Origin: a virus
Strand: one strand, 5' to 3'
DNA: 26,072 nt
Virus genome (UHGV): UHGV-0157394
Below, piece after piece: positions 1,529 through 24,533 of the stretch. The notes under the pieces are model-generated. The model searched no databases. It was not told where the DNA came from and saw only the letters and a list, made by a program, of their open reading frames with translations. The stretch's first letter is position 1. Each line of letters begins with the position of its first letter. Made by a program: the position numbers and the translations under genes.

Positions 1529-1534
1529 ATAAAA

Positions 1535-1557
1535 AGCCGCTCTACGCGGCTTTCTCT
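1535..1557. terminator. Bidirectional intrinsic terminator between convergent tfa and tail-fibre genes
   Basis: AAAAAGCCGC-tctac-GCGGCTTTCTCTT: GC stem with A-run upstream and T-run downstream. Confidence 0.5.
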
Positions 1558-2132
1558 TACATCCCGAGTGCAAAATACGTATAGCTGTCAATATTGTTTG
1601 CCGTGCCGTTTCCATTCCATCCATAAAGGCTAAAGCCAGTTAAGGTATAATTAGCTGACGTCACATACCGACCGTCAGCTGTGATTTTATGCGGAAGAAC
1701 GATAAATGGGGTGACATTAAACGGTTTTTTAAAGCTTACCGTAGCATTGGTCGCCTGAACCGAGCCGTGCCCCCATTGCAGCAGCAATCCTCCCGGTAAT
1801 TCAAAGTACCCATCAGCCTCCAGTAACCGTTCTCCAAATCCAAGGTTTTCGAGAGCCGTTTTCACCGTGCCATCCGATTTGATATCGCCAAACGGATTCT
1901 TGCGGCTTAACAGCAGCGCACGAAGCGCGGTAAGCAGCTGGTCATGCCGCCCCTTCTCCAGGCTGGCACCGGATGCCTCCACCACGCTGCAGAGTTCTTC
2001 CTGCAACATATCAAAGTAGTCATCATCCAGATCGGTGGCAGGTGTGCCGGTCTGGGGGTTACCACGGGTAAAACCGTTCTTACCCGCGCCGAACTTATCC
2101 TTCTGCGCGGTTTTCGTGTCTATACGATGCAT
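1557..2132 (-). CDS. Tail fibre protein (constant N-terminal part plus currently expressed C-terminal tip)
   Basis: 191-aa ORF at the end of the baseplate gene series; its C-terminal half is paralogous to the plus-strand fragment at 738-1100. Confidence 0.8.
1830..1855 (+). promoter_or_regulatory. Candidate hix/gix/pix-like crossover site inside the tail-fibre gene
   Basis: TTCTCCAAATCCAAGGTTTTCGAGAG matches about 20 of 26 positions of hixL as I recall it (TTCTTGAAAACCAAGGTTTTTGATAA); lies at the constant/variable junction of the fibre. Confidence 0.5.
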
Positions 2133-2135
2133 GGA

Positions 2136-4184: not shown

Positions 4185-4729
4185 GCCTCCATCACTTTAT
4201 CAGGTTTGTCGGTGTTACTGCCCTGACCGTTCTCTCTGTGACGATGCCCGTTATAGGCAAGCCGCATCGCTGACATGGTGGTGCCGGTGGAGTCGCACAG
4301 GTCTTTCACCTGTCCGGTCACTTCCAGGTCCATTTCAAAACGTGCCTTAGGCGCATTGCGAAACGTGATCGTTTTACCTGCACCGTCCACCACGATCCCC
4401 TCCCGGGCCAGCGTCACGGACTGCCCCTGATCGTCATAGACAGCCACCTCACCCGTCTGCAGCCCTTTCAGGCGGTAGCGCCGGTCCGACACCGTAACAA
4501 CCACCGCATGAGAACGGTCGCCATCCGGAAACAACACCACCGCTTCCGCACCGCTGTTTGCCCTTGCGGTAAAACCGTAGGGTTCAAGATGTTCAACCCC
4601 GGCTTTGGGTTCACCGGCAATCAGGGACACATCCACGGTCTGACATTTCGTGGCGGCACTGATGCTTTTCACCACGGCCCGCCCAATCAGGCCGAGGAGT
4701 TGTCGCTGCATGGCTTCAATCGTCCTCAT
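4181..4729 (-). CDS. Baseplate assembly protein V / spike (Mu gp45-like)
   Basis: 182-aa ORF, translationally coupled to flanking baseplate genes. Confidence 0.8.
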   Translation of the reverse strand: MRTIEAMQRQLLGLIGRAVVKSISAATKCQTVDVSLIAGEPKAGVEHLEPYGFTARANSGAEAVVLFPDGDRSHAVVVTVSDRRYRLKGLQTGEVAVYDDQGQSVTLAREGIVVDGAGKTITFRNAPKARFEMDLEVTGQVKDLCDSTGTTMSAMRLAYNGHRHRENGQGSNTDKPDKVMEA

Positions 4730-7133: not shown

Positions 7134-7143
7134 ATACACTCCG

Positions 7144-7174
7144 AAAATAAAAAAGCCACCTATTAGAAGGTGGC
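7144..7174 (-). terminator. Intrinsic terminator closing the low-GC moron cassette
   Basis: On the minus strand GCCACC-ttctaata-GGTGGC followed by TTTTTTATTTT. Confidence 0.7.
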
Positions 7175-7194
7175 CTTGTAATGAATTTTATTAA

Positions 7195-7725
7195 TTAGCG
7201 AGTCAGAAACAACGAATCTTTATACTTTTGCTGTTGTTCATTTAAATACTTAGCTGTTTCATCGCTGGCAAATGGAAATATTACCGTATTTTTAGGCATG
7301 GTAATTTCTTTTTTGTCCAGCGTCAGAGTAAACATAGGAACATACTGAGCAGAGTAACGCACCGCAGAAACGAGCTCTAGTTTAGACTCTTCAATAACAC
7401 TTAAATTATCCAGGCTAACTTTCTCTTCATCTTTTTTCTTTGACGCATTTAAAGTTTTTATTACTTTATTTAATTTCTCCTGAAAATCCTCCTTAAAGTT
7501 TTCAGGATTGCCGTCGACAACAAGAATCTGTTCACCCTGATTATCTGGAAAAATAATCTTTGCACTTATCAATTTATTTTCTTTATAAACATCACCAAGT
7601 TTTATGGCTCCTCCAGATAACTGAATAATATGTTCATCTTTAAAGGAGATGTTGCCAGAGATTATGAGAGATGAAAAAATAGCCGCTGCTCCAAGAATTA
7701 CACTTGCTGTGATATAGCCTTTCAT
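7195..7725 (-). CDS. Moron gene: exported or membrane-anchored protein of unknown function (176 aa, N-terminal signal peptide)
   Basis: ORF in a roughly 670-bp AT-rich island, far lower in GC than the flanking tail genes; N-terminus MKGYITASVILGAAAIFSSLIISG is signal-peptide-like with no lipobox; Lys/Glu-rich mature part; own promoter and terminator. Confidence 0.75.
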   Translation of the reverse strand: MKGYITASVILGAAAIFSSLIISGNISFKDEHIIQLSGGAIKLGDVYKENKLISAKIIFPDNQGEQILVVDGNPENFKEDFQEKLNKVIKTLNASKKKDEEKVSLDNLSVIEESKLELVSAVRYSAQYVPMFTLTLDKKEITMPKNTVIFPFASDETAKYLNEQQQKYKDSLFLTR

Positions 7726-7760
7726 TTTTCGCCTATTAACATTTTTCTAAATGTGCATTA

Positions 7761-7788
7761 ATTCTATCACTCTATTTATGACTTACAA
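7761..7788 (-). promoter_or_regulatory. Candidate sigma70 promoter of the moron gene (TTGTAA, 16 bp spacer, TGaTAGAAT extended -10)
   Basis: Motifs read on the minus strand about 35 nt upstream of the ATG at 7725. Confidence 0.4.
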
Positions 7789-7816
7789 CCAGCAATACAT
7801 GTGAGGGGAATCCTGG

Positions 7817-9649: not shown

Positions 9650-9809
9650 GTGCGCGTTTCTCCTGCTCTATCCTGTTTGCCTGACTGACCAGCAAGGGAA
9701 TTTCACTGATCGGCATATTCAGCAATTCGAAGGGATTAATGCGCCAGTAGCTGGCGCAGTCAAAGAAGCGATCAGTGAGGTATTCAGCCGTCAGGCCTGG
9801 AGGAAAAAA
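9636..9809 (-). CDS. -1 frameshift extension of the tail assembly chaperone (gpGT / E+E'-like fusion product)
   Basis: Overlapping ORF in the -1 frame relative to 9791..10060; slippery heptamer T_TTT_TTC at 9803-9809 about 10 nt before the zero-frame stop. Confidence 0.6.
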   Translation of the reverse strand, partial: FFPPGLTAEYLTDRFFDCASYWRINPFELLNMPISEIPLLVSQANRIEQEKRAHGGI

Positions 9810-10060
9810 CCAGCCACAAGCCACGCCGCTGCATTCAGGTCTGCCGGAGACATCTGGTCGACAGAGCTTTGCGGCACTTTCGCCAGCCGCACAATGTATT
9901 TCGATACAACATGCGCCAGAAGTCTGACGGACTCATCCTGATTCATCTGGTAGGGATACCCCAGCTCGCGGACATCTTTCCCGGTGGGCTCATCAAACTC
10001 CAGTACGGAGAGTGTCTCGCCATGAGCGGTAATCGGTTTCTTTAACTCAAGCTCTTTCAT
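9791..10060 (-). CDS. Tail assembly chaperone (zero-frame product)
   Basis: 89-aa ORF between tail tube and tape measure, the conserved position for the frameshifted chaperone pair. Confidence 0.8.
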   Translation of the reverse strand: MKELELKKPITAHGETLSVLEFDEPTGKDVRELGYPYQMNQDESVRLLAHVVSKYIVRLAKVPQSSVDQMSPADLNAAAWLVAGFFLQA

Positions 10061-10416
10061 TACTGGTAATCCCCTTCTTCACCGTGGAACTCAAGATCAA
10101 CCGTGCCTTCTTCGGCATTATGGTTCGCTTCGCCGTGCAGCCAGGCTGACGACAATACATAGACCTGACCGTTCGCCAGCTCAGCAGTGATGGTCATCTC
10201 ATCAGACGAGGTGATTTTGCTCACCGGAAAATTCTTCGGCACCTTGAAGGTCCCTTTGACATAAGGCGCACGGTGAGTTTCCTTGCGGTCCACTGAACCG
10301 TCCAGGCCGATGATGTCATCATTGACCGTCCTGTTCATGGGCACCTCAATGCCGCCGGTCAGCGATAGCTGCTGACCGTCAATTTTGAAATAACAGGTTC
10401 CCCCGATACGGGCCAT
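10060..10416 (-). CDS. Contractile tail tube protein (Mu gpM-like)
   Basis: 118-aa ORF immediately downstream of the sheath gene. Confidence 0.85.
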   Translation of the reverse strand: MARIGGTCYFKIDGQQLSLTGGIEVPMNRTVNDDIIGLDGSVDRKETHRAPYVKGTFKVPKNFPVSKITSSDEMTITAELANGQVYVLSSAWLHGEANHNAEEGTVDLEFHGEEGDYQ

Positions 10417-11912
10417 TATGCAGACTCCTCTGAATACTGAAGACGGAACTGGTTAACCACGGCAAAAACACGCAACTGGTTAACATAGTCAGGCGGGAAC
10501 AGCGTGTTCAGGCGGTTCGGATCGCTGGCATCACGCTCAACAACCAGGTACTGCTTAAACAGTTCGTAGTTTTCCACGATCCCCGCACGCTCAAGCTGAC
10601 GGTAGGTTGCCAGCAGTTCCCCTTTGATTACCGCCGGGGTGACAATCGCCTGACCGGGACCAAAGCGGGTACCGTCGCTGGCAAGCTTGTGACGCCCGTA
10701 CTTACTGGTAATGACGGATTTCAGTTTGCGCAGTACATACGCACTGGTATGCAGCGTCTCGCTGTCGAGGTAGCTGTTATCCGCAACCCCGTAAGCATTT
10801 TTCCTGTACGTGGTGACATCACGCTGAATGCGCAGCCCCCCGCTTTCGACATACGCCGTTGCCACGCCATGAGACAGCAGGGTCTGCTGCTCGGTCATCG
10901 TGAACCGTTTCCCCTTCGGCGCAGGCAGCATCCCCACCAGCTCACCGGTCTGCGTGGGACGTGCCGGATCGTTGCGGATAAACACCGCTGCGCGGGCGGT
11001 ACGGCTTGCCGCCAGCTCGTCGGCAGGCGTCTGGGTCTCTTTTTCGTACCCCGCCAGGGTGATGTGCTGCTGGTTAAACTGGTCACCTGCGTTCACCAGT
11101 TCTGACAGTGTGCCGGTCTTTGCCGTATACACATGACCATACAGCTGACGCGCATAGCTCCAGCGACCGCTGGTATCGTTCATCTCGGTCACCAGCGTGT
11201 TAACGGAGGCCGTGTCGTTGAACGGCAGACCGATATAATCAAACGGCTCATCCGCCATGGCAGCCACCGCGCCGGTGAGAACCGGAGCGCCCGTTCCGGC
11301 GGTCCCCGTCGCCACGGCAATCTGTACGCCCGCTGGCAGCACTTCACCCCCACCGAAGCCGTAGTAATTGAGGCTGACAGGAACTTCATTCCCGCAAAGC
11401 CCCTTATGACGCGCGGTCAGCGTGACAACACCAGCCGAAGATGAAGCTGTAAACGGCAGAGTCGGAACGGCATTGATGGCATCCTGGATACTGCTGGCAA
11501 TCGTCGTGACGTTATCGCCGTTGGTCACCGGAGCCTGCACGCGGGTACGTCCCACATAGACATTCACCGTGCCGCTTTCGGTTGCTTCCCCGGTCACCGT
11601 CAGCGTAACCGTTGCCGCCGCGCCTGTGGATTCAGGAACGGCAATCACATACAGCTCGCCAAACGGGTCAGTCTGGCGATAAGCCTCGACCATACGCGCC
11701 AGCTGACTTCCCGCACCACAAATCTGGCGTGCATAGTCTGCCGACGGCATCAGTACCAGACTGTTGGCAACAATCTCTGCACCGTTATTGGCATGACCAA
11801 TCAGCAGCGATGCTCCGCTGTCCTGTGCAGTATTCGCCGCCTGGTTATCCATTTCCGCATAAAACAACGGAACCAGCGTATTCGACGGAATGGTGTTAAA
11901 GCTTATCGTCAT
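10416..11912 (-). CDS. Contractile tail sheath protein (Mu gpL-like)
   Basis: 498-aa ORF, with size and position typical of myovirus sheath. Confidence 0.9.
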   Translation of the reverse strand: MTISFNTIPSNTLVPLFYAEMDNQAANTAQDSGASLLIGHANNGAEIVANSLVLMPSADYARQICGAGSQLARMVEAYRQTDPFGELYVIAVPESTGAAATVTLTVTGEATESGTVNVYVGRTRVQAPVTNGDNVTTIASSIQDAINAVPTLPFTASSSAGVVTLTARHKGLCGNEVPVSLNYYGFGGGEVLPAGVQIAVATGTAGTGAPVLTGAVAAMADEPFDYIGLPFNDTASVNTLVTEMNDTSGRWSYARQLYGHVYTAKTGTLSELVNAGDQFNQQHITLAGYEKETQTPADELAASRTARAAVFIRNDPARPTQTGELVGMLPAPKGKRFTMTEQQTLLSHGVATAYVESGGLRIQRDVTTYRKNAYGVADNSYLDSETLHTSAYVLRKLKSVITSKYGRHKLASDGTRFGPGQAIVTPAVIKGELLATYRQLERAGIVENYELFKQYLVVERDASDPNRLNTLFPPDYVNQLRVFAVVNQFRLQYSEESA

Positions 11913-12066
11913 CGGTGTTCACCTTTTTATTCACGCGCCGGATATCACCCGCTGCTTCACGGCGCAGCCAGTAGTTGTTCTCGTCAACATTTCGCCCTTC
12001 GGCGGGCAAAAGGTCGCCGCGGGCAGGGTCAGGCACTGACCGCCCTTTAACAGGTTTGACAAACAT
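11896..12066 (-). CDS. Small protein (56 aa) preceding the sheath gene; possibly a DUF2635-type Mu-like phage protein
   Basis: Not in the ORF track (under 60 aa); hand-translated as MFVKPVKGRSVPDPARGDLLPAEGRNVDENNYWLRREAAGDIRRVNKKVNTDDDKL; GAGG 9 nt upstream of ATG; overlaps the sheath start. Confidence 0.35.
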   Translation of the reverse strand: MFVKPVKGRSVPDPARGDLLPAEGRNVDENNYWLRREAAGDIRRVNKKVNTDDDKL

Positions 12067-12074
12067 GAGGATCC

Positions 12075-12635
12075 TCAGGAAGGAAGGGTTATTTCGGTGT
12101 GATGTTCGATATCGCCGTCAGGCCCGTTACCGGGATCGAGATAATCAACATCAATCGCCAGCGTTCGCAGTTCATCCAGACTGTTCAGCTCATCCTGCTG
12201 GCGGGTATCGTCTTCGGTCAGCTCGCTGATGACCGAAAAATCGAACTGATAAATCAGCTCATGACGATTCAGATCCAGCAGCGTGCCGCCGTCATAGGTA
12301 ATCGGGTTACCGCACGCTTCCGGGTTCCAGCCCAGCAGGGCCTTAAAGAGCATCTGCCGGACATCGTCCACCACATCATACGAAGCAAACTGACCGCGCT
12401 CATCACGCCCGTTACTCAGTATGACAACCACGGAGAAGCCCTCTTTCAGCTCCTGCCAGTAGTCGGTCTGGCTTTTGTTTTCTCCCGGAGAATCATCCCC
12501 CGGTACCACATACGCCGCCGGGAGTCTCAGCTTTCCGACCTCCGGCAGATTTTTGAACTGTGCCGCGCCTGCCACCCGGTTTTCAAAATACGGGCAGCGG
12601 GCACGCAGCGCAGCAATAACAGGCGTCAGTTTCAT
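12075..12635 (-). CDS. Tail-associated structural protein (Mu-like, DUF1834-type; tail terminator or sheath-proximal)
   Basis: 186-aa ORF between head-tail joining genes and sheath. Confidence 0.65.
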   Translation of the reverse strand: MKLTPVIAALRARCPYFENRVAGAAQFKNLPEVGKLRLPAAYVVPGDDSPGENKSQTDYWQELKEGFSVVVILSNGRDERGQFASYDVVDDVRQMLFKALLGWNPEACGNPITYDGGTLLDLNRHELIYQFDFSVISELTEDDTRQQDELNSLDELRTLAIDVDYLDPGNGPDGDIEHHTEITLPS

Positions 12636-13138
12636 CTGTGTCGTCGCTCCGGCTTCAGTGATTTACGCAATTCCCGCGCCAGAAAATAGCGTGTCCAGCT
12701 GTGGTTCTTTTCAAGCGTTTCCACCATGAAGTTATTACGTGGAGCCAGTCGCCAGCCGCTGCCACCGGATGCACCACGATGATGGCTGCGACGACGCTTT
12801 GCACCTCGCCTCACGCCATAGAACAAAAAAGCCGGATAAAAATCACCGGTGATACGGCGGTTTCCCTCTCCATTACGCTGGTTAGGGGCTATACGTGCCA
12901 TAAAACCAGGGCGATGTTTACTGGCTCTGGGTACCATGTAACCAATCGAACGAGCCAGGCGTCCGGTCTGATAACCGGGGTTTTCACCTGGTGCCGACCG
13001 CGCACGGCGCATCACCAGCCGACGGGCATCACGCATATGACGCTGACCAATCGTGACAAACGCCCGCCGGACACGGGCGCGGTTAAAGCGCATCTCCGCG
13101 GGCTGCTGAAAATCAACGTGCAAAAAGGAAGTCGTCAT
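12632..13138 (-). CDS. HK97 gp10-like tail completion / virion morphogenesis protein
   Basis: 168-aa Arg-rich ORF in the head-tail joining block. Confidence 0.65.
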   Translation of the reverse strand: MTTSFLHVDFQQPAEMRFNRARVRRAFVTIGQRHMRDARRLVMRRARSAPGENPGYQTGRLARSIGYMVPRASKHRPGFMARIAPNQRNGEGNRRITGDFYPAFLFYGVRRGAKRRRSHHRGASGGSGWRLAPRNNFMVETLEKNHSWTRYFLARELRKSLKPERRHR

Positions 13139-13523
13139 TGTTGCCTCCGTGACTCTGCCTACATTCGCCCAGCTCCGTACACTCCAGCAGCAGAAAGCGC
13201 CGCGCCCCGTTCAGATCGCGCTGACGTTTCACCCGGTACACACTGTCACCCCAGACCACCTCATAATCAGCGGTGATCCCCCGGCGGTAACGAATGGTGA
13301 TGTAATGGGTGATGGCGTCACCGGTCTGCGCGGTTTCCTGCCAGGTGGTGGCACTGGTCTGGACAACCTTCGCCCATGTCCGGAACGCAACCGGGTATTG
13401 AGGCTCCACGCCAAAGTTATCCGCGGGCATATCCACCCGCTGGCGGATCAGGACGCGTTTATTCAGTTCACCGGGGTCCGGCAGAATGTAGGTTGCGCTG
13501 GTCTGCGCCTGACGAATTTTCAT
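13113..13523 (-). CDS. Head-tail joining / head closure protein
   Basis: 136-aa ORF following the gp6-like connector. Confidence 0.7.
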   Translation of the reverse strand: MKIRQAQTSATYILPDPGELNKRVLIRQRVDMPADNFGVEPQYPVAFRTWAKVVQTSATTWQETAQTGDAITHYITIRYRRGITADYEVVWGDSVYRVKRQRDLNGARRFLLLECTELGECRQSHGGNNDDFLFAR

Positions 13524-13843
13524 TGCGGAAAGTACCTGTACGGGCCGACAAGCCAGCCAAAACTCTGCGGCATGTCGAGTTTCTCCACTTCAGTAACCGA
13601 CGAGCGGTTTTCGTAAAAATGGCTGATAAGCATCAGCATCCCCAGACGAATATCATCCGGCAGGTGCAGCCCGTCCGGATCGCTGTCCGGAATGGTTTCA
13701 TCCGGTGCATAGAGCTTCCGGTTCAGATACGTTTCCGTCCGCTTTTGTGCCGCACAGGCCAGCAGTTGCAGATGGCGGTCATCAGTATCGAAATCCTCAT
13801 CCAGCCGGAGTTGGGCTTTAATCTCTTCCATTGTCAGAAGCAT
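13520..13843 (-). CDS. Head-tail connector protein (gp6-like, DNA packaging)
   Basis: 107-aa acidic ORF downstream of the capsid gene. Confidence 0.75.
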   Translation of the reverse strand: MLLTMEEIKAQLRLDEDFDTDDRHLQLLACAAQKRTETYLNRKLYAPDETIPDSDPDGLHLPDDIRLGMLMLISHFYENRSSVTEVEKLDMPQSFGWLVGPYRYFPQ

Positions 13844-13845
13844 AC

Positions 13846-14046
13846 TCAGCCCTCTTTACTGGTCGTGGCTTTTTTCTCTTTTGCCGCTTTACTGCTTTTT
13901 GCACTGATTCCGCGCTCTGCTAACCCGGCCTGAAGTGCAATCTCCTGCACCCGGGCAGGAAGCGCCCCGTCGTCATACTCACCGGCCCGAATGACCTCAA
14001 CACGCATACCGTCCGGTGACCATTTCAGATCTTGTTTCAGGATCAT
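13846..14046 (-). CDS. Small hypothetical head-region protein (66 aa, Lys-rich C-terminus)
   Basis: ORF packed tightly between capsid and connector genes; no recognisable family. Confidence 0.45.
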   Translation of the reverse strand: MILKQDLKWSPDGMRVEVIRAGEYDDGALPARVQEIALQAGLAERGISAKSSKAAKEKKATTSKEG

Positions 14047-14067
14047 GATTCTTCACCCGTCAGAACA

Positions 14068-14088
14068 GGGGGCGCGGTTCCGCGCCCC
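14068..14088 (-). other. GC-rich hairpin immediately 3' of the major capsid gene
   Basis: GGGGGCGCGG-tt-CCGCGCCCC 9-10 bp stem; no U-tract follows on the coding strand. Confidence 0.5.
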
Positions 14089-14095
14089 TGAGTGA

Positions 14096-15301
14096 TTACG
14101 CCGCTGCAATCTTCAGCAGTTTGATGGCCTGCGAATCGACCAGCATCCCGCCGGTGCGCTTGGTGGTATAAAAACCGACAAACGGTTTATTGGTGTACGG
14201 GTCACGCAGAATGCGGGTGCCGATACGGTCAACGATGGTGTAACCCCGTTTGAAGTTACCAAATGCAATGGCTTTCGCATCAGCAGCGATATCCGGCATC
14301 TGTTCGTTTTCAGCGATACCGTAACCCGCCAGAGAGGACGGCTGCCCCAGTTCCAGCCCCGGACGCCACAGATAGTTACCCTCGCTGTCTTTCAGCAGAC
14401 GGATGGCAAACAGGCTGTTGTTGTTCATCATGAACTTCGCGCCAGTGCGGTGTGCCTTACGCAGCGTGTAAATCAGTTTGATAATGGCGTCTGCGGTCAC
14501 CGTCGTCGCTTCACCGGATACAATATGCTGAAGTTTACCGAACGCACGAACCTTATCGGTTTCATCAGTGGATTCATACGCCAGGAACCCTTTCGGCTTC
14601 TTGGTGCCATCGCCTGAGGTAAAGGCAATTTCTTCCTGTTCGGCAAATTCGGTTGCCAGCTCGCTGTTGATCCAGGCCTCCACGTTGAAGAAGGCATCGT
14701 CCAGCATTTTCTGGGTAGCCTGCGGGTTGCCGTAAATTTCCCCCATGAGAGGTTCAATCAGCTCCAGTCTGGAGGTGGCAGTCTGGGATCGCGTATCCGT
14801 TTCCCCCACCCATCCGGAAGCCGTACCGCCCAGATTCACCAGTTTTTTGTAGTCGGAACCGCCAACGGTGATCACCGTGGCTTCCTGACGCATCACCACT
14901 TCATCTTTCAGCAGGTTAAGAATGTTGCGATCCAGTTCTTCCGGCACGGCGTAGCCACCGTCTTCATCGGTACCCACCTGCAATGCCTTACGCTCCAGAT
15001 CGCGCAGACCGTCTTCACGGCCTTTACGCAGGAAGCCCACAAACGCCTCTTTATGCTCGGTGGCCAGTTTATTTTGCGCTCCACCAGCCGGACGTTTCAG
15101 CTCAAGCAGCTCTTTTTCAAGGTCGCTTTTGAGATTTTCCAGCTCGCTGAGTTTCCCGTTCAGGGTTTCCACCTGCCCGGCAAGCTTGCCTTTTTCCTGC
15201 TCAATCGCATCCACGCGCTTGTCGTTCTTTGCTTTGAAGTCGTCAAACTTCTGCTGCAGCTCCTGCGCGACCTGTTCGACATCTTTAATATCAACCGCCA
15301 T
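14096..15301 (-). CDS. Major capsid protein, HK97 family (with N-terminal delta/scaffold domain)
   Basis: 401 aa; coiled-coil Lys/Glu-rich N-terminus followed by an HK97-fold-like body; preceded by prohead protease and portal. Confidence 0.95.
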   Translation of the reverse strand: MAVDIKDVEQVAQELQQKFDDFKAKNDKRVDAIEQEKGKLAGQVETLNGKLSELENLKSDLEKELLELKRPAGGAQNKLATEHKEAFVGFLRKGREDGLRDLERKALQVGTDEDGGYAVPEELDRNILNLLKDEVVMRQEATVITVGGSDYKKLVNLGGTASGWVGETDTRSQTATSRLELIEPLMGEIYGNPQATQKMLDDAFFNVEAWINSELATEFAEQEEIAFTSGDGTKKPKGFLAYESTDETDKVRAFGKLQHIVSGEATTVTADAIIKLIYTLRKAHRTGAKFMMNNNSLFAIRLLKDSEGNYLWRPGLELGQPSSLAGYGIAENEQMPDIAADAKAIAFGNFKRGYTIVDRIGTRILRDPYTNKPFVGFYTTKRTGGMLVDSQAIKLLKIAAA

Positions 15302-15315
15302 CGTATTTCTCCTGA

Positions 15316-16002
15316 TTAGAAGTTCAGATTTTTCAGTGCATTCAGTGCAGAGCCCACATCCTCAGCGTCGCGCAGGGACAGTGCGCCATAGCCCCCGGCC
15401 ATGAATGCTTTGGCCTGGGTACGGGAGAGTCCGACATCACGCAGGACTCTTTCGATTTTTTTCTGTTCGGGGATTTCCCCGCGGGCCAGTGCGTTCTTGA
15501 CGTCGCTGATCCGCGCCTCGTCGTTAGACGGGAACGTCACCAGGCTGACTTCCCAGAGGTCGATTTCTTTCAGCAGAAAGGCTTCTTTGCTCCGGTCGTA
15601 TTCCCAGTCTTTCAGGACGTACCCAATAGAAAGGCCGGTTAACGAACCGGCCTTCATGTGTGCATGTGCGCGTTTTGCGAGGGGATCATCATCAATAAGC
15701 AACCGTCCCCTGACGTAAAGCCCGACATCGTCTTCCTTCATTTCGGTGTAAACACCGATGGGTTCATCCATGCGGTGCTGCCAGAGCAGCGCAGGTAACG
15801 CTTTTCTGTCACTCCACGCCCGCAGGGAAGCAGCAAATGCCCCGGACATCACCACATCATCGTGGCTGTCCTTTACACCAAAGACGGAGCCATACCCTTC
15901 AAACTCACCGGAGTCACTGACAGATTTCAGACTCAGCGGTACATCAAGACGTTGTTTCGTCTGCATTGGCGTTATCCTTCTGCTTACCGGCTTTACTGCC
16001 AT
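15316..16002 (-). CDS. Prohead maturation protease, HK97 family
   Basis: 228 aa with FEGYGSVFG...DVVMSGAF motif typical of HK97 gp4-type proteases. Confidence 0.9.
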   Translation of the reverse strand: MAVKPVSRRITPMQTKQRLDVPLSLKSVSDSGEFEGYGSVFGVKDSHDDVVMSGAFAASLRAWSDRKALPALLWQHRMDEPIGVYTEMKEDDVGLYVRGRLLIDDDPLAKRAHAHMKAGSLTGLSIGYVLKDWEYDRSKEAFLLKEIDLWEVSLVTFPSNDEARISDVKNALARGEIPEQKKIERVLRDVGLSRTQAKAFMAGGYGALSLRDAEDVGSALNALKNLNF

Positions 16003-17185
16003 CGGAGGGTTTCGTGGTCATGTTCATCGGTGTGAGATAGACATCACCACCGGGACGCGGATTCATATCTTCCAGGTCGCGGCAGTCATTGGGAGAGTAA
16101 ATTCCCCAGTTAATCCCGGTGGCGTAGGCTTCAAAACGGGACTTCATATCCCCGCGCAGTAACGCCCCGGCGTTAAATTTGGCGTAATAAACGCCCTGCT
16201 TACTTTTTCGTACCAGTCCGGTGTTGATCCGCTGCTCAATGCGGGTCAGATACGGCACCAGTGAATAGTTGATAAATCCCAGCCCCAGTTCTTCGATATT
16301 GTTGAAGGTGGCACGATCGGTGTTCTGCACCATGTGCAATGGCACACGGAACAGACGACAGATTTCTTCAAGCTGAAACTTGCGGGTTTCCAGGAACTGG
16401 CTGTCCTCGGCGTTCAGCGCCATCGACTTCCAGTCCAGCCCCATCTCAAGGATCATCGGGCGGTGAGCATTGCCAAGCCCGGTGTGACGCTCCTCAAAAT
16501 CTTTCTTCAGGCGCTCATAAGCCTGATCTGACAGCGTCTGCTCTGTACGCAACACACCCGACGTCACCGCGCCATTGCTGAACAGTCTGGCCCCGTGCTC
16601 TTCGGTCGCTGCCGCCAGCGATATTGCCTCGCGGGCATAGGCGATGGGATTCAGCCCCACCAGTCCGTCAAGCGTCAGCGTGCGCACATGCCAGATATCC
16701 TCCTGGCTCAGTACATCCGTGGAGCCATCCGGGAATGTGACCTGATAGACCGGCTCCCAGCTACTGTTAAGCTTCGGTACCACACTGCCGGGATCGACGG
16801 GCAGCAGTTCAGCCACTTCGCCAAATGCTTTCACTTTGTAGGCGTAAAAGTTTCCCCGCAGGCACAGACAGGTGACCACCAGCTCCCAGAACTCCTGCGG
16901 CGTCATATAGCCATTGGGATGCGTGGAGATCAGCTTATGCAGACGTTCGCCAGTGGCTCTCTGCTTCAGGCTGCCGTTCAGGTGATACAGATTGCAGGGC
17001 AACATCCCGACCGACTCTGCCAGCACCCTGACGCAGGAAAAAACCGCCGTCAGTCGCATGGCCCGCTGGCTGCTGATCTGCTTTCCGGTATAGGTGTCGT
17101 ATGACAGCCCGATAGCATCCGCCAGCTCTGCTGGCGTGGTCACCGGTGTGTCACTTTTTCGTTGAAATAATCCCGAAAAGAACAC
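15944..17185 (-). CDS. Portal protein, HK97 family
   Basis: 413-aa ORF between terminase and protease. Confidence 0.95.
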   Translation of the reverse strand: MFFSGLFQRKSDTPVTTPAELADAIGLSYDTYTGKQISSQRAMRLTAVFSCVRVLAESVGMLPCNLYHLNGSLKQRATGERLHKLISTHPNGYMTPQEFWELVVTCLCLRGNFYAYKVKAFGEVAELLPVDPGSVVPKLNSSWEPVYQVTFPDGSTDVLSQEDIWHVRTLTLDGLVGLNPIAYAREAISLAAATEEHGARLFSNGAVTSGVLRTEQTLSDQAYERLKKDFEERHTGLGNAHRPMILEMGLDWKSMALNAEDSQFLETRKFQLEEICRLFRVPLHMVQNTDRATFNNIEELGLGFINYSLVPYLTRIEQRINTGLVRKSKQGVYYAKFNAGALLRGDMKSRFEAYATGINWGIYSPNDCRDLEDMNPRPGGDVYLTPMNMTTKPSDGSKAGKQKDNANADETTS

Positions 17186-17367
17186 TATTTACCTCCACCA
17201 ACAGACAGCTGTGTACGGTCGAGATATCGCGCCACCAGCCACGACCAGAACAGGCACAACGCCCCGGCAACAACAAACCCCGCAGGGGGATAAATCAGCC
17301 AGGCACCATACGCCAGCAAAAGCACCCCCAGCACGCCCACCAGAGGCGCGAGAATCAGCATGATCAT
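17185..17367 (-). CDS. Small hydrophobic protein (60 aa, two predicted TM segments)
   Basis: ORF between terminase large subunit and portal; entirely hydrophobic except the C-terminal tail. Confidence 0.5.
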
Positions 17368-17378
17368 AATTACCTCAG

Positions 17379-19112
17379 TTAAAGCGAGCGGATCCCGTAG
17401 GACTCAATGTGATCAGACAGCGTGTCTTCTTTCTCGTACAGCATGGCTCTGCCAACCGCCATAATCAGCGCAACTGCACCGTCAATTTTGTTTTCCGCCT
17501 GCTCTTTGACGGGTTTCACCACATCATCGTTACCCGGCATGTTTTTGCCGACCACGTTGCCGATACACCAGGTCATGATGGGATTGCCGTCATGATGAAA
17601 ACGTCCCGATTCAATCGCTGCTTCCAGCTCTTTCATCGGATCGGACATATTGGTGAAGTTCTGGAAGATAGTGACGGGATTCAGGTCTTCATCAGCAAGG
17701 TCATGTGACAGCCCGGTCGCCCCGAAGGGGTCGATGGGTGACTCGCTGACCGGGCTGATTTTGTTCGCCGCTTTGGCCTCTTCGAGGATGTAGCGATAAT
17801 CCACCTCTGCACCATCGGTAACGGTCAGGACGCCCATTTCCACCCATTTCTGAAAGCGTTCGGCTGTCCGGCGATCTTCATTTTTCTCGACGCTGTACAC
17901 CGTGTCATACGGTACCCAGAAACGCGGGGCCACACTGTAGTAATGCGTTTTACCGTCAATCTCGCGGGTATAAAGTCGCGCCATGCTGTTCATATCCAGT
18001 TTACGCGCCAGGTCAAAGGCCAGAATGCACGGCTGCCCCTCGAATTGCTCAAGAGTCAGTGATTTATCCTCGCAGCTCTGCCAGCTCACCAGGTTGAAAT
18101 ACGCCGAACGCGCCGACACCCAGATATTGAGGTGTTTTGTTTTAAAGACGTTTGCCAGACGGGCGTTATTTTTCGCACGCTGTTGCTGACTTAACAAAAA
18201 CTCACGGTAAACCGACACCCCGATATTCGGGTTGGCTTTTTCCAGCACCTGTGGGTTGGTCCAGTCGTCACCTTCGTCAACGGTATAGATGATCCCGAAC
18301 AGTTCATCGTTGGGTACCGAACCGTTGAGCATCTCGATAACTTCCCGCCGTTTGTCGTAGCACGGCCCCTCAATGTTGTACCCGGCAGTAGTAATGGCCC
18401 ACATCAGTGGCTGACGTCGCGCCCCCATCCCGGTAAGCATCGTGGTGTAAAGCGCATCGGTGGCGTGCTCGTGATATTCATCCACCACCGCACAGTGGGG
18501 TGATGATCCATCACCGGGGTTACCGATCAGCGGTTCAAACCGCGCGCCATCCTCCGGACGGTTCATGTTTGAGGCGTTAACCTCAATCCCGAACGCTTCC
18601 GTCAGCATGGGTGTGCGTTTACACATCAGTCGCGCCGGGCGAAAGACTTCCCACGCCTGTTTCTCTGTCGTGGCACCGGAATACACTTCCGCGCCAAACT
18701 CGTTATCACAGGCAAAACAATACAGGGCGACACCGGCAGAGATTGCCGATTTGCCGTTCTTACGGGGGATTTCGGTATACACCTCACGGAAGCGGCGCAG
18801 CCGGGAGCCTTTATTGACCCAGCCAAACGCGCAGCAGATCACAAAGAGCTGCCACGGCTCCAGCGTGATGGGCATCCTCTTAAATGCCCACTCACCCTTG
18901 GTGTGCGGCAACAGCTGAATAAATTTGGCGGCCCGTTCAGCCAGGTCCTTGTCGAAGCGGTAACGAAACGACTTACTTTTTTCCGCCATCAGGTCATCAA
19001 GATGGCGCTGGCAGGCCTGAATCACAAACTGGCAGGCCACAATCTTTCCCCGCACGACATCACGGGCATACTGATTGGCAGCATTTACGTTGGGGTAAGA
19101 TTTCCGGCTCAT
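17379..19112 (-). CDS. Terminase large subunit
   Basis: 577 aa; size and position typical of HK97-like terminase. Confidence 0.95.
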
Positions 19113-19612
19113 GATTCGATGATTTTCAGAAACGGGTTAGTGGCTTTCTTCTGCCCCGCCAGGCCTATCAGACGCTGGCGGCTGCTGGGGTCGAGTCCGA
19201 GCATTGCCCCCGTGCTGCTCATCTCGGACTCCTGTTCTTTCTTGGCGGTCAGCTCCGGGTTTTTGACCCTGCCGCCCATTGCACCGGTGATGGTGTTGCC
19301 CTGGCTGGCAATATTTTTCACGGCACGTCGCCAGAACTCATAGGCCACGCACCACCGCTCAAGTACCGCCAGGTCAGTCACGCACAGCAGGCCCTGACCG
19401 CAGAGTTCTTTGGTTGTCAGTTGCCACATGATCGTGGCGAGAGGGAGATCTTCTTCTGCGAACCACTCCGGTGGCTCAACACCTTTGATGGGCGTAAAAA
19501 CAGGTTCATCTTTGTTCAGGGCTCGCTTGCCGGGGTTTCCGGCCAGCGCCTTGCGCGCCGTTGGCTTGGGGCGACGCCCGGAACGCCCCGCCGTTCCAGC
19601 CATATGCGGCAC
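19109..19612 (-). CDS. Terminase small subunit (P27/HK97 gp1 family)
   Basis: 167 aa; N-terminal ...[26 protein letters not shown] motif. Confidence 0.9.
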
Positions 19613-19728: not shown

Positions 19729-20079
19729 TCACTTTAACCGTTCACGGGCCGTCTTCGCCTTATGGCAGGGCCAGCACAGACTCTGCAGATTACTGTCGGC
19801 ATCGGTGCCGCCATGCGCTTTAGGGATGATGTGGTCAACGGTTTTAGCTTCACGCACCACACCGGCACGCAGACATAACTGACACAGGCCTTTGTCACGT
19901 TTCAGGACACGTGCGCGGATAACATCCCACTTCGAACCATAACCGCGCTGATGCCTTGATTGTCCTGATTTGTAGGATTTCCAGCCTTCGCCTTTGTGCG
20001 ACTCACAGTAACCTGATGGGTCTGTTGTCGTGGAACGGCAGCCGCGAACACGGCAAGCTTTTGGTGTTCGAGGTGGCAT
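19729..20079 (-). CDS. HNH endonuclease (terminase-associated, HK97 gp74-like)
   Basis: 116 aa with Cys pairs and DHIIPKAHGG...N...CHK HNH motif; immediately upstream of terminase genes. Confidence 0.9.
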   Translation of the reverse strand: MPPRTPKACRVRGCRSTTTDPSGYCESHKGEGWKSYKSGQSRHQRGYGSKWDVIRARVLKRDKGLCQLCLRAGVVREAKTVDHIIPKAHGGTDADSNLQSLCWPCHKAKTARERLK

Positions 20080-20091
20080 TTTAACTCCAAT

Positions 20092-20120
20092 AAAAAACCG
20101 CCCGGAGGCGGTTATAGTTT
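20092..20120 (-). terminator. Intrinsic terminator after the 92-aa moron gene
   Basis: ACCGCC-tccg-GGCGGT stem followed by TTTTTTATT on the minus strand; overlaps the stop codon of the 20112..20390 gene. Confidence 0.6.
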
Positions 20121-20390
20121 TTTGTATGGCTTTGGCTTTGGGTTGCCATGCCTGATGTGCGACTTAATCACATCGTCGCTTGGCCTGCGTCCGTTAACTC
20201 CGATCAGATAAATCTCGTCATCCACCTGGAATTCAAAGATCTGATACTCCACATCGGGGATGACCGCCACGCCACCAACCATTTCCCGAGCCTTCACTTG
20301 ACAGTCCGGAACCTTGATCGTCAACTCATGCCTTTCAACGTGGCAAACCGAACCAAAACGCCCAGCGCCGAACACAACTACGTCGAACAT
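20112..20390 (-). CDS. Moron gene: small protein of unknown function (92 aa from the ATG start)
   Basis: Strong RBS GGAGG 5 nt upstream of ATG at 20390 (the track starts at an upstream GTG); own extended -10 promoter and own terminator; AT-rich upstream region. Confidence 0.65.
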   Translation of the reverse strand: MFDVVVFGAGRFGSVCHVERHELTIKVPDCQVKAREMVGGVAVIPDVEYQIFEFQVDDEIYLIGVNGRRPSDDVIKSHIRHGNPKPKPYKKL

Positions 20391-20419
20391 ATGCACCTCC
20401 TTTCCATTGATGCCTGATA

Positions 20420-20780: not shown

Positions 20781-21509
20781 TCAGGCCGCCGCATAGAGCA
20801 ATTTCATCTGCCCTTTCACCTGGAATGCCGACATGCAACGCGCTTCGAAATCACGATAATCAGAGCACCCATTGGCAATGCTGGTAACGGCAATGATCTG
20901 TCGCTCAACCAATGTCAGCGCGTCAGGTTTAAGGTGCTGATGGATTTTGTCTCCCGTAGCCAGCCGTCTTTTAACCTCTGCATATACTTCTGGTGGTAAT
21001 ACCGGGCCATATACCCACTTGGCACTGATCATCCCAAATAGTGCGGGGCGACGACCTGGTCGATGACGGGGCAGCCCTGACATTTTGAACATCGCAGAAT
21101 AAAACGGATCGCTAAACCTCTTTTCCCATGGCTGAGATTTATCCAGAAGGAAAATAGCCTTTATTCTTTCATCGTCGATATGATGAACGGAACCCTGAAT
21201 GATTGCGTCAATTTGCTCATCACACCAGATCTCAAAATCTACAGAAAGCCATCGAGCAAATCTGACCGCCAGTTTTGGGTGAAGCCATGTTCCGCCACCA
21301 CGATCTTTGCGAGCGCGGCTGGTTTTTACATATGTGATATTCCCATATCTACTCTTTAACGCCTCGATGTAACGGACAGTCTCAGGAAGCCTAAGCCACT
21401 GAGCCGGCTCCTTGTTGAACTTGTCAGCTGCCGCAGTCGCGTCAAACCAGCCATCGTCAGAAAAACGCATGGGATGGCCTTCGAAATCAATCGGGATGAT
21501 ATTGGACAT
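20781..21509 (-). CDS. KilA-N domain protein with an unassigned C-terminal domain
   Basis: IPIDFEGHPMRF...GGTWLHPKLAVRFARWLSVDFEIWC matches the KilA-N hallmark; likely start is the ATG at 21509 with AAAGG RBS rather than the track's 21584. Confidence 0.75.
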   Translation of the reverse strand: MSNIIPIDFEGHPMRFSDDGWFDATAAADKFNKEPAQWLRLPETVRYIEALKSRYGNITYVKTSRARKDRGGGTWLHPKLAVRFARWLSVDFEIWCDEQIDAIIQGSVHHIDDERIKAIFLLDKSQPWEKRFSDPFYSAMFKMSGLPRHRPGRRPALFGMISAKWVYGPVLPPEVYAEVKRRLATGDKIHQHLKPDALTLVERQIIAVTSIANGCSDYRDFEARCMSAFQVKGQMKLLYAAA

Positions 21510-21659
21510 CGTATTTACCTTTTTGGTGATATGAGCCAGTTCTCGCAGACATGGACAGCCCAAGAGCGGCACGATGTAAGCCACCGTCCTGTCTCTGTCT
21601 CATATCCCGAAAAGCTCTTGGTTGATATGCGCACGAGAATGCGCGTTTACTGCGGACAT

Positions 21660-21683
21660 AAAAAAGCCCCGCATCGCGAGGCT
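21660..21683 (-). terminator. Intrinsic terminator downstream of the lysis cassette
   Basis: AGCCUCGC-gau-GCGGGGCU stem (one G-U pair) followed by UUUUUUAUG on the minus strand. Confidence 0.55.
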
Positions 21684-21714
21684 CATTAAATGGACTTTGT
21701 GATTTGCAAAAAAA

Positions 21715-22152
21715 TTATTTCAGGCACTGAGTCCTGATGTACTCCTGCAGGTAGTTAACCTGCGCGGTTATCCTGTCGATTCCACTTCGGAGACGGTAAT
21801 AATTGAGTTCAGCATCTGCTGTAAGTCCTGGGCTTTCTCCATCGCCCATGCCGCTGGCTCCGGTCGTTGACTTTGCACAGGTGGCGGCGACTTGCAGGCG
21901 CTTACGACCAGCAGAAACATCAGCACGGAGGCTTTCGATAGTCGCGTTAGCATCAGCAAGCTCCTTTGTGTATCTGGCATCGAGTTCTGCTACGTCACGT
22001 TGACGCTTCTGCATGTCAGCGATTGTGGATGTGGCTTTATCGCGCTGTTCTTTGTAGGCGATGGCGTTATCACGGTAATGATTAACCGCCCATGACAGGC
22101 AGACGATGATGCAGATAACCAGAGCGGAGATAATCGCGGTTACTCTGCTCAT
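21715..22152 (-). CDS. Rz: Spanin inner-membrane subunit Rz
   Basis: N-terminal [31 protein letters not shown] near-identical to lambda Rz; remainder diverged. Confidence 0.9.
21768..21953 (-). CDS. Rz1: Spanin outer-membrane lipoprotein Rz1, embedded in Rz in the +1 frame
   Basis: Embedded ORF with lipobox-like LVVSAC followed by a Pro-rich segment; exact start among several Met codons is uncertain. Confidence 0.6.
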
Positions 22153-22625
22153 ACCTCAATCTCTCTGACCGTTCCACCTGCTTCTTTGAATTTTGCAATC
22201 AGGCTGTCTGCCTTATGCTCGAACTGACCATAACCAGCACCCGGCAGTGAAGCCCAGATATTGCTGCAACGGTCGATTGCCTGACGGATATCGCCGCGAT
22301 CAATCATCGGTAAAGCGCCACGCTCCTTAATCTGCTGCAATGCCACAGCGTCCTGGCTTTTGGGAGAGAAGTCTTTCAGGCCAAGCTGCTTGCGGTAGGC
22401 ATCCCACCAACGGGAAAGAAGCTGGTAGCGTCCTGCGGCTGTTGATTTGAGTTTGGGGTTTAGCGTGACAAGTTTGCGAGGGTGATCGGAGTAATCAGTG
22501 AATAGCTCTCCTCCTACAATGACGTCATAACCATGATTTCTGGTTTTCTGACGTCCGTTATCAGTTCCCTCTGACCATGCCAGCATATCGAGGAACGCCT
22601 TACGTTGATTATTGATTTCCACCAT
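22149..22625 (-). CDS. R: Endolysin R (lytic transglycosylase)
   Basis: 158 aa, essentially identical to lambda R as recalled. Confidence 0.95.
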
Positions 22626-22932
22626 CTTCTACTCCGGCTTTTTTAGCAGCGAAGCGTTTGATAAGCGAACCAATCGAGTCAGTACCGATGTAGCCGATGA
22701 ACACGCTCGTTATATAAGCGAGATTGCTACTTAGTCCGGCGAGGTCGAGAAGATCACGAATGAACCAGGCGATAATGGCGCACATCGTTGCGTCGATTAC
22801 TGTTTTTGTAAACGCACCGCCATTATATCTGCCGCGAAGGTACGCCATTGCAAACGCAAGGATTGCCCCGATGCCTTGTTCCTTTGCCGCGAGAATGGCG
22901 GCTAACAGGTCATTTTTTTCTGGCATCTTCAT
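22609..22932 (-). CDS. S: Holin S (class I, dual-start S107/S105)
   Basis: [39 protein letters not shown]... near-identical to lambda S, including Met1-Lys2-Met3. Confidence 0.95.
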
Positions 22933-23230
22933 GTCTTACCCCCAATAAGGGGATTTGCTCTATTTAATTAGGAATAAGGTCGGTTACTGATAGAACAAAT
23001 CCAGGCTACTGTGTTTAGTAATCAGATTTGTTCGTGACCGATATGCACGGGCAAAACGGCATGAGGTTGTTAGCGCAACCTCTTGCCACCCGCTTTCACG
23101 AAGCCAGCCATTGAGCTGGTTTTCTTTTATGCAAAGCACACCGCACCGTAGCCACAGCGGATAAGGTGATTATTTTTGTCTGTCTGGTATTTGGTTTGAT
23201 GTGCTTTCAGAAAGGCCGTGCTTAAAACGC

Positions 23231-23262
23231 AAAAAGCCCCGAGCTATTAACTCAGGGCTTTA
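23231..23262 (-). terminator. Intrinsic terminator about 30-60 nt downstream of the pR' start (tR'-like)
   Basis: AGCCCUGAG-uuaauag-CUCGGGGCU stem then UUUUUGCG on the minus strand. Confidence 0.6.
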
Positions 23263-23294
23263 TTTAACGAGTGCATTTATCCATCGTTGAGTCA

Positions 23295-23323
23295 AATTTA
23301 CCCAACTTTATTCAAAAAGTCAA
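23295..23323 (-). promoter_or_regulatory. Late promoter pR' with overlapping qut region (TTGACT, 17 bp, TAAATT)
   Basis: TTGACTTTTTGAATAAAGTTGGGTAAATTTGACTCAACGATGG on the minus strand matches lambda pR'/qut as recalled, directly downstream of Q. Confidence 0.75.
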
Positions 23324-23365
23324 TATTATGCCGTTAATATGTTGCCATCCGTGGCAATCATGCTG

Positions 23366-23989
23366 CTAACGTGTGACCGCGTTCAAAATGTTGTCTGCGA
23401 TTGACTCTTCTTTGTGGCATTGCACCACCAGAGCGTCATACAGCGGCTTAACAGTGCGTGACCAGGTGGGTTGGGTAAGGTTTGGTACTAGCATCGTCAC
23501 AGCGCGATATGCAGCGCTTGCTGGCATTCTTGAATAACCGACGCCTTTGCATCTTCCGCATTCTTTCTCAACAACTCTCCCCCACTGCTCTGTTTTTGCT
23601 ATATCAACCGCACGGCCTGTACCGTGGCAATCTCTGCATCTTGCGCCCGGCGTCGCGGCACTACGGCAATAATCCGCATAAGCGAATGTTGCGAGCACTT
23701 GCAGTACCTTTGCCTTAGTATTTCCTTCGAGCTTTGCCACACCACGGTATTTCCCCGATACCTTGTGTGCAAATTGCATCAGATAGTTGATAGCCTTTTG
23801 TTTGTCGTTCTGGCTGAGTTCGTGCTTACCGCAGAATGCAGCCATACCGAATCCGGCTTGTGATTGCGCCATCCCCATAGCAGCCATCACATCAGTACCG
23901 GAAAGGGAGTCAGAAGCCGTGGCCCGTGGTGAGTCGCTCATCATCGGGCTTTTTGGCGAATGAAATTTAGCTACGCTTTCGAGTCTCAT
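23366..23989 (-). CDS. Q: Late gene antiterminator Q (lambda type)
   Basis: 207 aa, essentially identical to lambda Q over its whole length, including the zinc-binding Cys cluster. Confidence 0.97.
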   Translation of the reverse strand: MRLESVAKFHSPKSPMMSDSPRATASDSLSGTDVMAAMGMAQSQAGFGMAAFCGKHELSQNDKQKAINYLMQFAHKVSGKYRGVAKLEGNTKAKVLQVLATFAYADYCRSAATPGARCRDCHGTGRAVDIAKTEQWGRVVEKECGRCKGVGYSRMPASAAYRAVTMLVPNLTQPTWSRTVKPLYDALVVQCHKEESIADNILNAVTR

Positions 23990-24174
23990 CGTCTTCCCCT
24001 CTTGCCCTGTTTGACCATCAGGACGCCGTTAACTATTACGTGACGCTCACCTTTGCTGTCTCGGTTGTACTTGAGCACTGTTCCTCTTGCGCAGGAAAGC
24101 ATCCTTGCCACTTCGGTCTGATTGCCTCGTGTCTGGATAAGAAGCTCTGGTATCGTTTGAATTGTGGCGTTCAT
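23986..24174 (-). CDS. ninH: NinH
   Basis: 62 aa with NQTEVAR...C.RGTV.KY...G..H.IVN.VLMV pattern matching lambda NinH. Confidence 0.85.
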   Translation of the reverse strand: MNATIQTIPELLIQTRGNQTEVARMLSCARGTVLKYNRDSKGERHVIVNGVLMVKQGKRGRR

Positions 24175-24533
24175 GCGTTCTCCAGTTCGGTGATTTTTAT
24201 TCCAAGCCTTCCGCCTGGTACTTTCACACCACGAATTACGCGAATGTCATCGAATTGCTCGTCGTCTTCCGCAAATCCGGCGTGGATAAGGGAGTCGAGT
24301 AAACCCTTCAGGATGTTATCGAGGTCGCGGCGGCGGGAGTCTGGAACGTCTGCGATGACTTTGATGCGGAGTCGTGATTTGGTGAAAATGTCTAACTTAA
24401 GTTGGCGGATGATTTGCTGAACGTCTTTTCGGTATTTCTGGCCTTTATCGCTGATGTAGTATTGGCTTCCCCGTCTTCGCCAGTAGGTGTTCACCGACGG
24501 CGGGTATGGAAGCACAAACTGATATTCGTTCAT
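24171..24533 (-). CDS. rusA: Holliday junction resolvase RusA
   Basis: 120 aa; MNEYQFVLPYPPSVN...RRRDLDN...KITELENA typical of RusA. Confidence 0.9.
   Translation of the reverse strand: MNEYQFVLPYPPSVNTYWRRRGSQYYISDKGQKYRKDVQQIIRQLKLDIFTKSRLRIKVIADVPDSRRRDLDNILKGLLDSLIHAGFAEDDEQFDDIRVIRGVKVPGGRLGIKITELENA

Follow-up and report, generated by a model that had tools for sequence, protein, structure and literature searches.

A P22/HK97/HK022-type late cassette with a predicted short pR' leader between lambda-type Q and S genes

Introduction

How is late transcription controlled in a phage that carries an almost unchanged lambda antiterminator gene Q, followed at the usual place by the holin gene S, when the DNA between the two is much shorter than in lambda? 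The question is raised by a stretch of 26,072 nt (the window, meaning the whole of the DNA analysed here), whose minus strand is, according to its open reading frames, the coding strand of the late operon. All features lie on this strand unless stated otherwise. A preliminary description of the sequence had proposed that a lambda-type late promoter pR' with its qut site is retained, that the leader RNA is terminated early and that the Q-S spacer has been remodelled.

Two bodies of work bear on the question. The lambda 6S RNA is bound by Hfq, is present in lysogens and is processed to about 121 nt, while a second Hfq-bound lambda RNA of about 63 nt, LPR2, is encoded near 6S (bioRxiv 10.1101/2024.10.31.621285). 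As to the antiterminator, Q-lambda binds its binding element (QBE), engages the paused RNA polymerase and, with NusA, refolds as a torus on the RNA-exit channel. Once 15-16 nt at the 5' end of the RNA have passed through this torus, terminator and pause hairpins cannot form; the role of the pause element in this process is to let sigma bind again at a -10-like sequence (PMC9388147). Lambda Q and the P22 gene 23 protein gp23 have been reported to substitute for each other (PMC8022706).

The Q-S interval is shorter than that of lambda and diverges in its middle part

The Q gene (23989..23366) encodes 207 aa, 205 of which are those of lambda Q; it had been described as lambda-identical, which is nearly so (99%), but the identity is not complete. 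Downstream of it lie the holin gene S (22932..22609), identified by alignment to lambda S, the endolysin gene R (22625..22149) and the spanin gene Rz (22152..21715), the latter two with annotated homologues in HK544, and all four reading frames are intact. The Q-S spacer measures 433 bp (23365..22933), while its lambda counterpart (NC_001416), between the Q end at 44509 and the S start at 45186, has 676 bp. The difference of 243 bp bears out the preliminary estimate of about 240 bp.

Aligned with lambda, the sequence from the Q stop codon to position +8 of the late transcript is identical except for three substitutions, one upstream of the -35 hexamer and two in the spacer between -35 and -10. 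From +9 to +23 the match is still 13/17, and true divergence sets in at +24; the sequence does diverge after the early transcribed region, as had been proposed, but the onset is slightly later than stated. Beyond this point the window shows gaps of 135, 56, 39 and 14 columns relative to lambda. Collinearity with the full lambda 6S region had been named as the result that would speak against a remodelled spacer, and the gap of 135 columns shows that the two are not collinear there. The middle of the spacer (23104..23230) is at most weakly lambda-like; it is of the P22/HK97 type and keeps collinearity with P22 and epsilon34, although identity is lower there. Homology to lambda resumes at 23103, 16 nt before a hairpin at 23087-23058, and runs through this hairpin and the S-start element into S, in agreement with the preliminary description. 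The resulting S-proximal block of 171 bp (22933..23103), near-identical to lambda in the alignment, is the sole part of the spacer that matches Sf6, HK75 and BTP1. The lambda orf-64 is absent from the window.

Within the S-proximal block, the hairpin at 23087-23058 has a 12-bp stem (GGCAAGAGGTTG-CGCTAA-CAACCTCATGCC) with an A.A mismatch and is followed by GUUUUG, the whole element covering 23052..23087. It is conserved between the window and lambda, and its variants often carry one mismatch. We considered it as a conserved terminator and rejected it, given the frequent stem mismatch and the absence of the U-run in P22 and epsilon34 (CCUGAUCUGCC); the missing U-run is why we leave it out of the terminator count. 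Closer to the holin gene, the stem-loop CCCCTTATTGGGGG (22952-22939) lies just upstream of S and is identical to its lambda counterpart; we take it to be the lambda sdi structure, which sets the choice between the S107 and S105 starts. S itself opens with the dual start Met1-Lys2-Met3 (ATGAAGATG at 22932-22924), preceded by a CCCCUUAUUGGGGG hairpin identical to that of lambda, and in this respect it is a dual-start holin of the lambda kind.

Some minor features of the spacer lie outside this comparison. On the plus strand lies a CCAGC/GCTGG hairpin (23100..23123), and the invariant AAAAGAAAA stands ahead of it on the late strand; read on the antisense strand, the hairpin therefore looks like an intrinsic terminator. 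The hairpin is conserved in P22, epsilon34 and HK620 with an extra C-G pair (one nt per arm); lambda does not have it, and the search for an antisense promoter gave none. For a 51-aa reading frame starting with GTG (23139..22984), the HK140 record lists the homologue as a hypothetical protein. The frame has no Pfam match and is interrupted in P22 and epsilon34, so it probably does not represent a gene.

The late promoter, qut site and pause element follow lambda closely

A promoter scan of 21000-24200 returned a single sigma-70-like site, located 42 bp downstream of the Q stop codon as measured to the -35 hexamer. This is pR' (23295..23323), with -35 TTGACT at 23323-23318, a spacer of 17 nt and -10 TAAATT at 23300-23295; it aligns base for base with lambda pR', both hexamers being identical, and PR' is annotated at the corresponding site in the records of HK544, P22 and HK140. 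The promoter spacer contains the qut or Q-binding element TTTTGAATAAAGTTGGGTAAA (23297..23317), which agrees at 19/21 positions with the qut string of lambda as given in the mEp/HK records, our reference here. Those records themselves annotate pR' and a qut site 'with 2 bp mismatch', and the variant in the window is the one found in P22, epsilon34 and HK544. Thus the proposal that the -35, the -10 and the early transcribed region match lambda is upheld by the alignment, with two differences in qut.

Are these two differences adapted to the divergent leader? Among the pR' loci compared (L004-L123), every combination of the variants at spacer position 2 (T or A) and position 12 (A or G) is seen, and both leader types have them; hence the variants behave as freely recombining polymorphisms rather than as a co-adapted change. 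They appear to be neutral and to have been shuffled by recombination.

The start of transcription is placed by the lambda alignment at 23288 (+1; lambda 44587), and the P22 record marks the 'probable 5' terminus of late RNA transcript' at the equivalent A. Positions +1 to +8 are identical to lambda, so the sigma-dependent pause element AACGAT at +1..+6 (23283..23288) is intact. By analogy with lambda, the polymerase is predicted to pause at +16/+17, that is at 23273/23272. Position +17 differs between the window (A) and lambda (G), which means that the exact pause site may not be the same.

A strong terminator is predicted at +31 to +58

The top-ranked terminator-like site of the region scanned lies directly downstream, and we designate it tR' (23231..23258) from the scan, the predicted fold and the comparison with relatives. 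It consists of an 8-bp stem, GCCCUGAG/CUCGGGGC (23258-23251 / 23243-23236), with a loop of 7 nt, followed by UUUUU (23235-23231), so that hairpin and U-run span +31..+58. The 64-nt leader folds at -23.3 kcal/mol, compared with -11.8 +/- 2.7 for shuffled sequences (z = -4.3; 0/200 shuffles as good), and the hairpin alone accounts for -19.1 kcal/mol. Across 16 distinct short-leader variants, 97.6% of the stem cells are paired, with one compensatory change from A-U to C-G and several single changes that preserve wobble pairing; covariation support is modest, as the sequences are very similar and of low diversity. A G.U pair of the stem becomes a C.A mismatch on the opposite strand, which makes the hairpin better on the late strand.

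From the positions of start and terminator, the constitutive leader RNA made without Q (23229..23288) is predicted to be about 58-61 nt long, in round terms 60 nt, compared with 194 nt for the lambda 6S RNA. This sustains the earlier proposal of a strong terminator some 30-60 nt from the start and of a leader far shorter than 6S. The U-run comprises just five U before a G. The epsilon34 version of the terminator is weaker (GGGGAUUUUCG, hairpin -13.1 kcal/mol), and since some relatives share such weaker forms, termination efficiency may vary between phages.

The short leader is the ordinary form in P22, HK97 and HK022

The 1.4-kb stretch from Q to S has full-length matches of 97-98% identity in HK544, ECP1, HK140, HK106, the mEp phages, Sf101, HK97 and HK022, and a full-length match of 91% in epsilon34. 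For the spacer alone, identity to the HK544/HK97/HK022/HK140/mEp group is 94.9-98.8%, the Q-S intervals of these phages showing point differences only, and 81 phage records match the spacer query at a coverage of at least 80%. Lambda, DE3 and their relatives match the spacer at its two ends only, over 63% of the query. In a five-way alignment of the window with P22, epsilon34, Emek and HK544, the spacer is collinear with the interval between genes 23 and 13 of P22, with indels of only 1-2 nt until the holin-proximal end is reached.

The likeness to P22 extends to the Q-type protein, the promoter, the qut variant, the start site, the leader from +1 to +30 and the terminator stem at +31..+59. 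The leader as a whole (+1..+59) equals that of P22 except in the terminator loop, which reads UUAAUAG here and UUUAACCG in P22, and it is by this measure a short leader of the P22/HK97 type. Overall the P22 spacer is about 81% identical, its middle being noticeably less alike than leader and promoter, and the last 60 bp before the holin gene, together with the holin itself, are of lambda type in the window and of P22 type in P22. Lambda in turn agrees with the window in Q, pR', pause element and start site, in the initial 23 nt of the transcript but for 4 mismatches, and over the final 171 bp ahead of S with sdi and the dual-start S; it differs in its 194-nt leader, which ends in a compound tR' hairpin, where the window has about 60 nt.

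The short terminator has been annotated before. The record of P22virB-3 lists the late promoter, the qut site and, at +31..+59, 't late or tR'; antiterminated by gene 23 protein action', and in the Emek record a rho-independent terminator is placed on the same hairpin. HK620 also has the short tR' hairpin, yet its annotators put the late terminator, 'tQ', about 650 nt further downstream. Sy et al. (PMC7547250), citing Roberts et al. 1976, mention short RNAs regulated by antitermination from the late promoters of phages 21, phi80, 82 and P22; our literature search found no paper on the short leader of HK97 or HK022. The short late leader is therefore the ordinary form of P22, HK97 and HK022, already known and annotated.

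We then asked how common this form is. An exact-match scan of IMG/VR with a 25-nt pR' core common to both leader types returned at least 120 contigs. Leader types were counted for sequences with at least 250 nt downstream of pR', including the window and four reference phages, and were classified by sequence; a strict terminator finder, which failed to detect lambda tR' or the Salmonella variants, was not used for the counts. Among the matches listed, the short leader is present in 98 of the 119 pR'-bearing sequences, 95 having the leader of the window and 3 another short leader with an equivalent hairpin. The remaining 21/119 among the matches listed are of the lambda 6S type, so that short leaders outnumber it by about 4.7 to 1. 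In complete E. coli genomes, the segment comprising pR' and the short leader is found at a coverage of at least 80% in 333 of 5426. The spacer does differ from that of lambda in the manner described at the outset, but the word remodelled takes lambda as the reference, while the short form is the majority. With about four fifths of the pR'-bearing sequences among the matches listed having a leader of about 60 nt, it is the 194-nt 6S leader of lambda that is atypical of phages with a lambda-type Q. As a discovery the cassette matters little; its main use is as a corrective to a lambda-centred view.

Short-leader phages are without the lambda 6S and LPR2 segments

The probe sequences given in the preprint 10.1101/2024.10.31.621285 define targets at lambda +71..+105 for 6S and at +230..+264 for LPR2 (44816-44850, in the long hairpin that follows tR'). 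Both targets fall in the two largest lambda blocks missing from the window (L001 811-945 and 997-1052; gaps of 135 and 56 columns). The 6S target is absent from the whole window, the best ungapped match being 20/35, and so is the LPR2 target; the leader described here is accordingly neither. Neither probe core was found in any of 97 short-leader loci among the matches listed, and at least one of them was found in 19 of the 21 lambda-type loci among the same matches. Judged from these sequences, short-leader phages are without both late-leader sRNAs of lambda, and since the 6S and LPR2 segments are missing from the short form, whatever functions these RNAs have are not general to phages with a lambda Q.

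A few IMG/VR loci are mosaics of the two forms. In L006, L033 and L053/L092, the first 150 nt after +1 contain the short terminator and then a lambda-like long hairpin, GCACAACAGG...CCGTTGTGC. Compensatory changes (AGGTAAGAGCA/TGCTCTTTCCG vs AGATAATTGCA/TGCAATTATCG) preserve its basal stem, and the apical sequence differs; these long hairpins may represent a variable family of LPR2-like modules. The combination of a short terminator with a lambda-like hairpin indicates that the region is modular. Since in the mosaics lambda-type sequence from beyond tR' follows immediately after the short terminator, the short tR' can be assigned to the slot of lambda tR'. The 3' arms of the two terminators also look alike (CUCGGGGCUUUUU in the short form, UUCGGGAUUUUUU in lambda). 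We considered common descent of the two stems but did not retain it, the stems being too short to prove it, and claim positional equivalence only.

A probable standard Q-dependent late switch and its alternatives

A Q-lambda cassette is defined by the Q gene, pR', the QBE, the sigma-dependent pause element, a terminator and the late genes; the window has them all, in canonical order. We read the locus as a standard late cassette of the Q-lambda type in its P22/HK97/HK022 form, in which the short tR' at +31..+58 is read through when Q is present, and we put the probability of this reading at about 90%. Promoter activity, pausing, termination efficiency and Q-dependent read-through are here carried over from the established biology of lambda and P22; for read-through with Q and NusA, the P22 annotation and the exchange of gp23 for lambda Q lend indirect support. 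On that model, pR' would fire constitutively and the polymerase would pause at +16/+17 because sigma-70 binds again at the -10-like AACGAT of +1..+6. Without Q, transcription would terminate at the hairpin and U-run, and the leader of about 60 nt would be released. With Q, the protein would bind qut in the promoter spacer, load on the paused polymerase together with NusA and form a nozzle at the RNA-exit channel. The nascent RNA would have threaded this nozzle by about 16 nt, well before the hairpin, which begins at +31, is transcribed. A terminator whose 5' arm begins at +31 is compatible with loading at +16/+17, given threading by 15-16 nt, and by analogy P22 shows that this geometry works. 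The modified polymerase would then pass tR' and the later terminators, those after Rz, the morons and at the end of the operon, to transcribe S, R, Rz and the head and tail genes.

Would the released leader be more than a by-product? It might instead be a trans-acting, possibly Hfq-binding sRNA of lysogens, and in P22 or HK97 lysogens the short leader would be an obvious candidate. There is a precedent in StxS, a functional sRNA derived from the pR'-tR' leader of Stx phages (PMC7547250), which shares with our leader the genetic position and logic, a constitutive and prematurely terminated late leader in lysogens; it belongs, however, to another Q family, is unrelated in sequence, and has demonstrated Hfq binding and targets. 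The two Hfq-bound RNAs of lambda (bioRxiv 10.1101/2024.10.31.621285) are moreover encoded in blocks that differ between lambda and the window, and the predicted layout of the leader, which combines a 5' part of 30 nt with an A/U-rich stretch and a U-tailed terminator hairpin, resembles that of an sRNA. Against this, the U-tail is short and the leader is conserved no better than the flanking Q 3' end and promoter. The best complementarity of its single-stranded 30 nt within the 26-kb window is 9 nt, below that of a typical shuffle. An Rfam 15 covariance-model scan of 21500-24200 at a permissive threshold returned no family, the one chance match, to a snoRNA, having E = 0.31, and no RefSeq feature is annotated over the leader. 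On balance we regard a regulatory role as unlikely, and it is doubtful, too, that the leader region between pR' and the holin gene is a swappable sRNA slot, occupied by 6S and LPR2 in lambda, by StxS in Stx phages and by the RNA of about 60 nt here. Were it so, the short leader would be a distinct and widespread prophage sRNA and not an inert by-product.

A different objection concerns the terminator itself. If the hairpin at +31..+58 were weak or partial, the effective Q-dependent block could lie downstream, for instance at 23087-23058 with its GUUUUG, and the leader would be about 235 nt long. The second conserved hairpin with its short U-run in the S-proximal block of 171 bp, the 'tQ' placed far downstream of pR' by the HK620 annotators and the mere five U of the first U-run would all fit. 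Yet the first hairpin greatly exceeds the second in strength, and it is on the first that the records of P22 and Emek place tR' and a terminator, respectively; the second often has an internal mismatch and is without its U-run in P22 and epsilon34, and in lambda it lies downstream of the proven tR'. We hold a downstream block to be very improbable. One might finally suppose that the short spacer is a recent, prophage-specific deletion from a lambda-like ancestor in a degraded or cryptic cassette, the lambda spacer being longer by 243 bp and the alignment showing four gap blocks. But Q, S, R and Rz are intact, short forms outnumber the lambda type about 4.7 to 1 among the matches listed, and the identical architecture occurs in the viable phages P22, HK97, HK022, HK544, mEp and epsilon34 (91-98% identity). 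With the same architecture in so many viable phages, a private deletion is effectively refuted, and the standard Q-dependent cassette remains our reading of the locus.

Further terminators and the genomic setting of the late operon

Downstream of the lysis genes the terminator scan gave four more sites. An intrinsic terminator lies 3' of Rz (21684-21664), and its HK544 homologue is annotated as rho-independent; a two-way terminator-like hairpin (20113-20096) lies 3' of a 94-aa reading frame (20396..20112); another terminator (7177-7152) follows a 176-aa reading frame of the tail region (7725..7195), near which a promoter-like site is found at 7788-7761; and the last (1555-1531) follows the final tail-fibre reading frame (2132..1557; Pfam Gp53-like_C) at the end of the operon. 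The proposal of further terminators after Rz, a small moron and a tail moron is upheld. It is a reasonable inference from lambdoid biology that the late operon would rely on Q antitermination at several of these points.

The Q-S cassette sits in a prophage with a contractile tail of the SfV/SfII type, unlike the virion-gene background of the HK and mEp phages. The virion genes of the window (about 1500-19600) belong to the SfV/SfII/SfI type, to which they are about 97% identical, and they include a tail sheath and a Mu-like tail. A Q-S-R-Rz cassette common to HK97- and P22-like phages on an SfV/SfII-type virion background is typical lambdoid mosaicism. The interval from the Rz terminator to the terminase genes contains a reading frame with KilA-N/P63C domains (21584..20781); the 94-aa frame, which ends in the two-way hairpin, is without a family match, and an HNH endonuclease frame (20079..19729) adjoins the terminase genes.

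Within Q, the plus strand, antisense to the gene, carries TTGC-N6-TTGC at 23689-23702, as in cII-dependent promoters; a terminator-like hairpin with a U-run (23926-23944, plus strand) follows after about 225 nt. Motif and hairpin together would fit a conserved antisense RNA of the PaQ type, as in lambda. A PaQ terminator is annotated at the equivalent place of the Q gene in the epsilon34 record.
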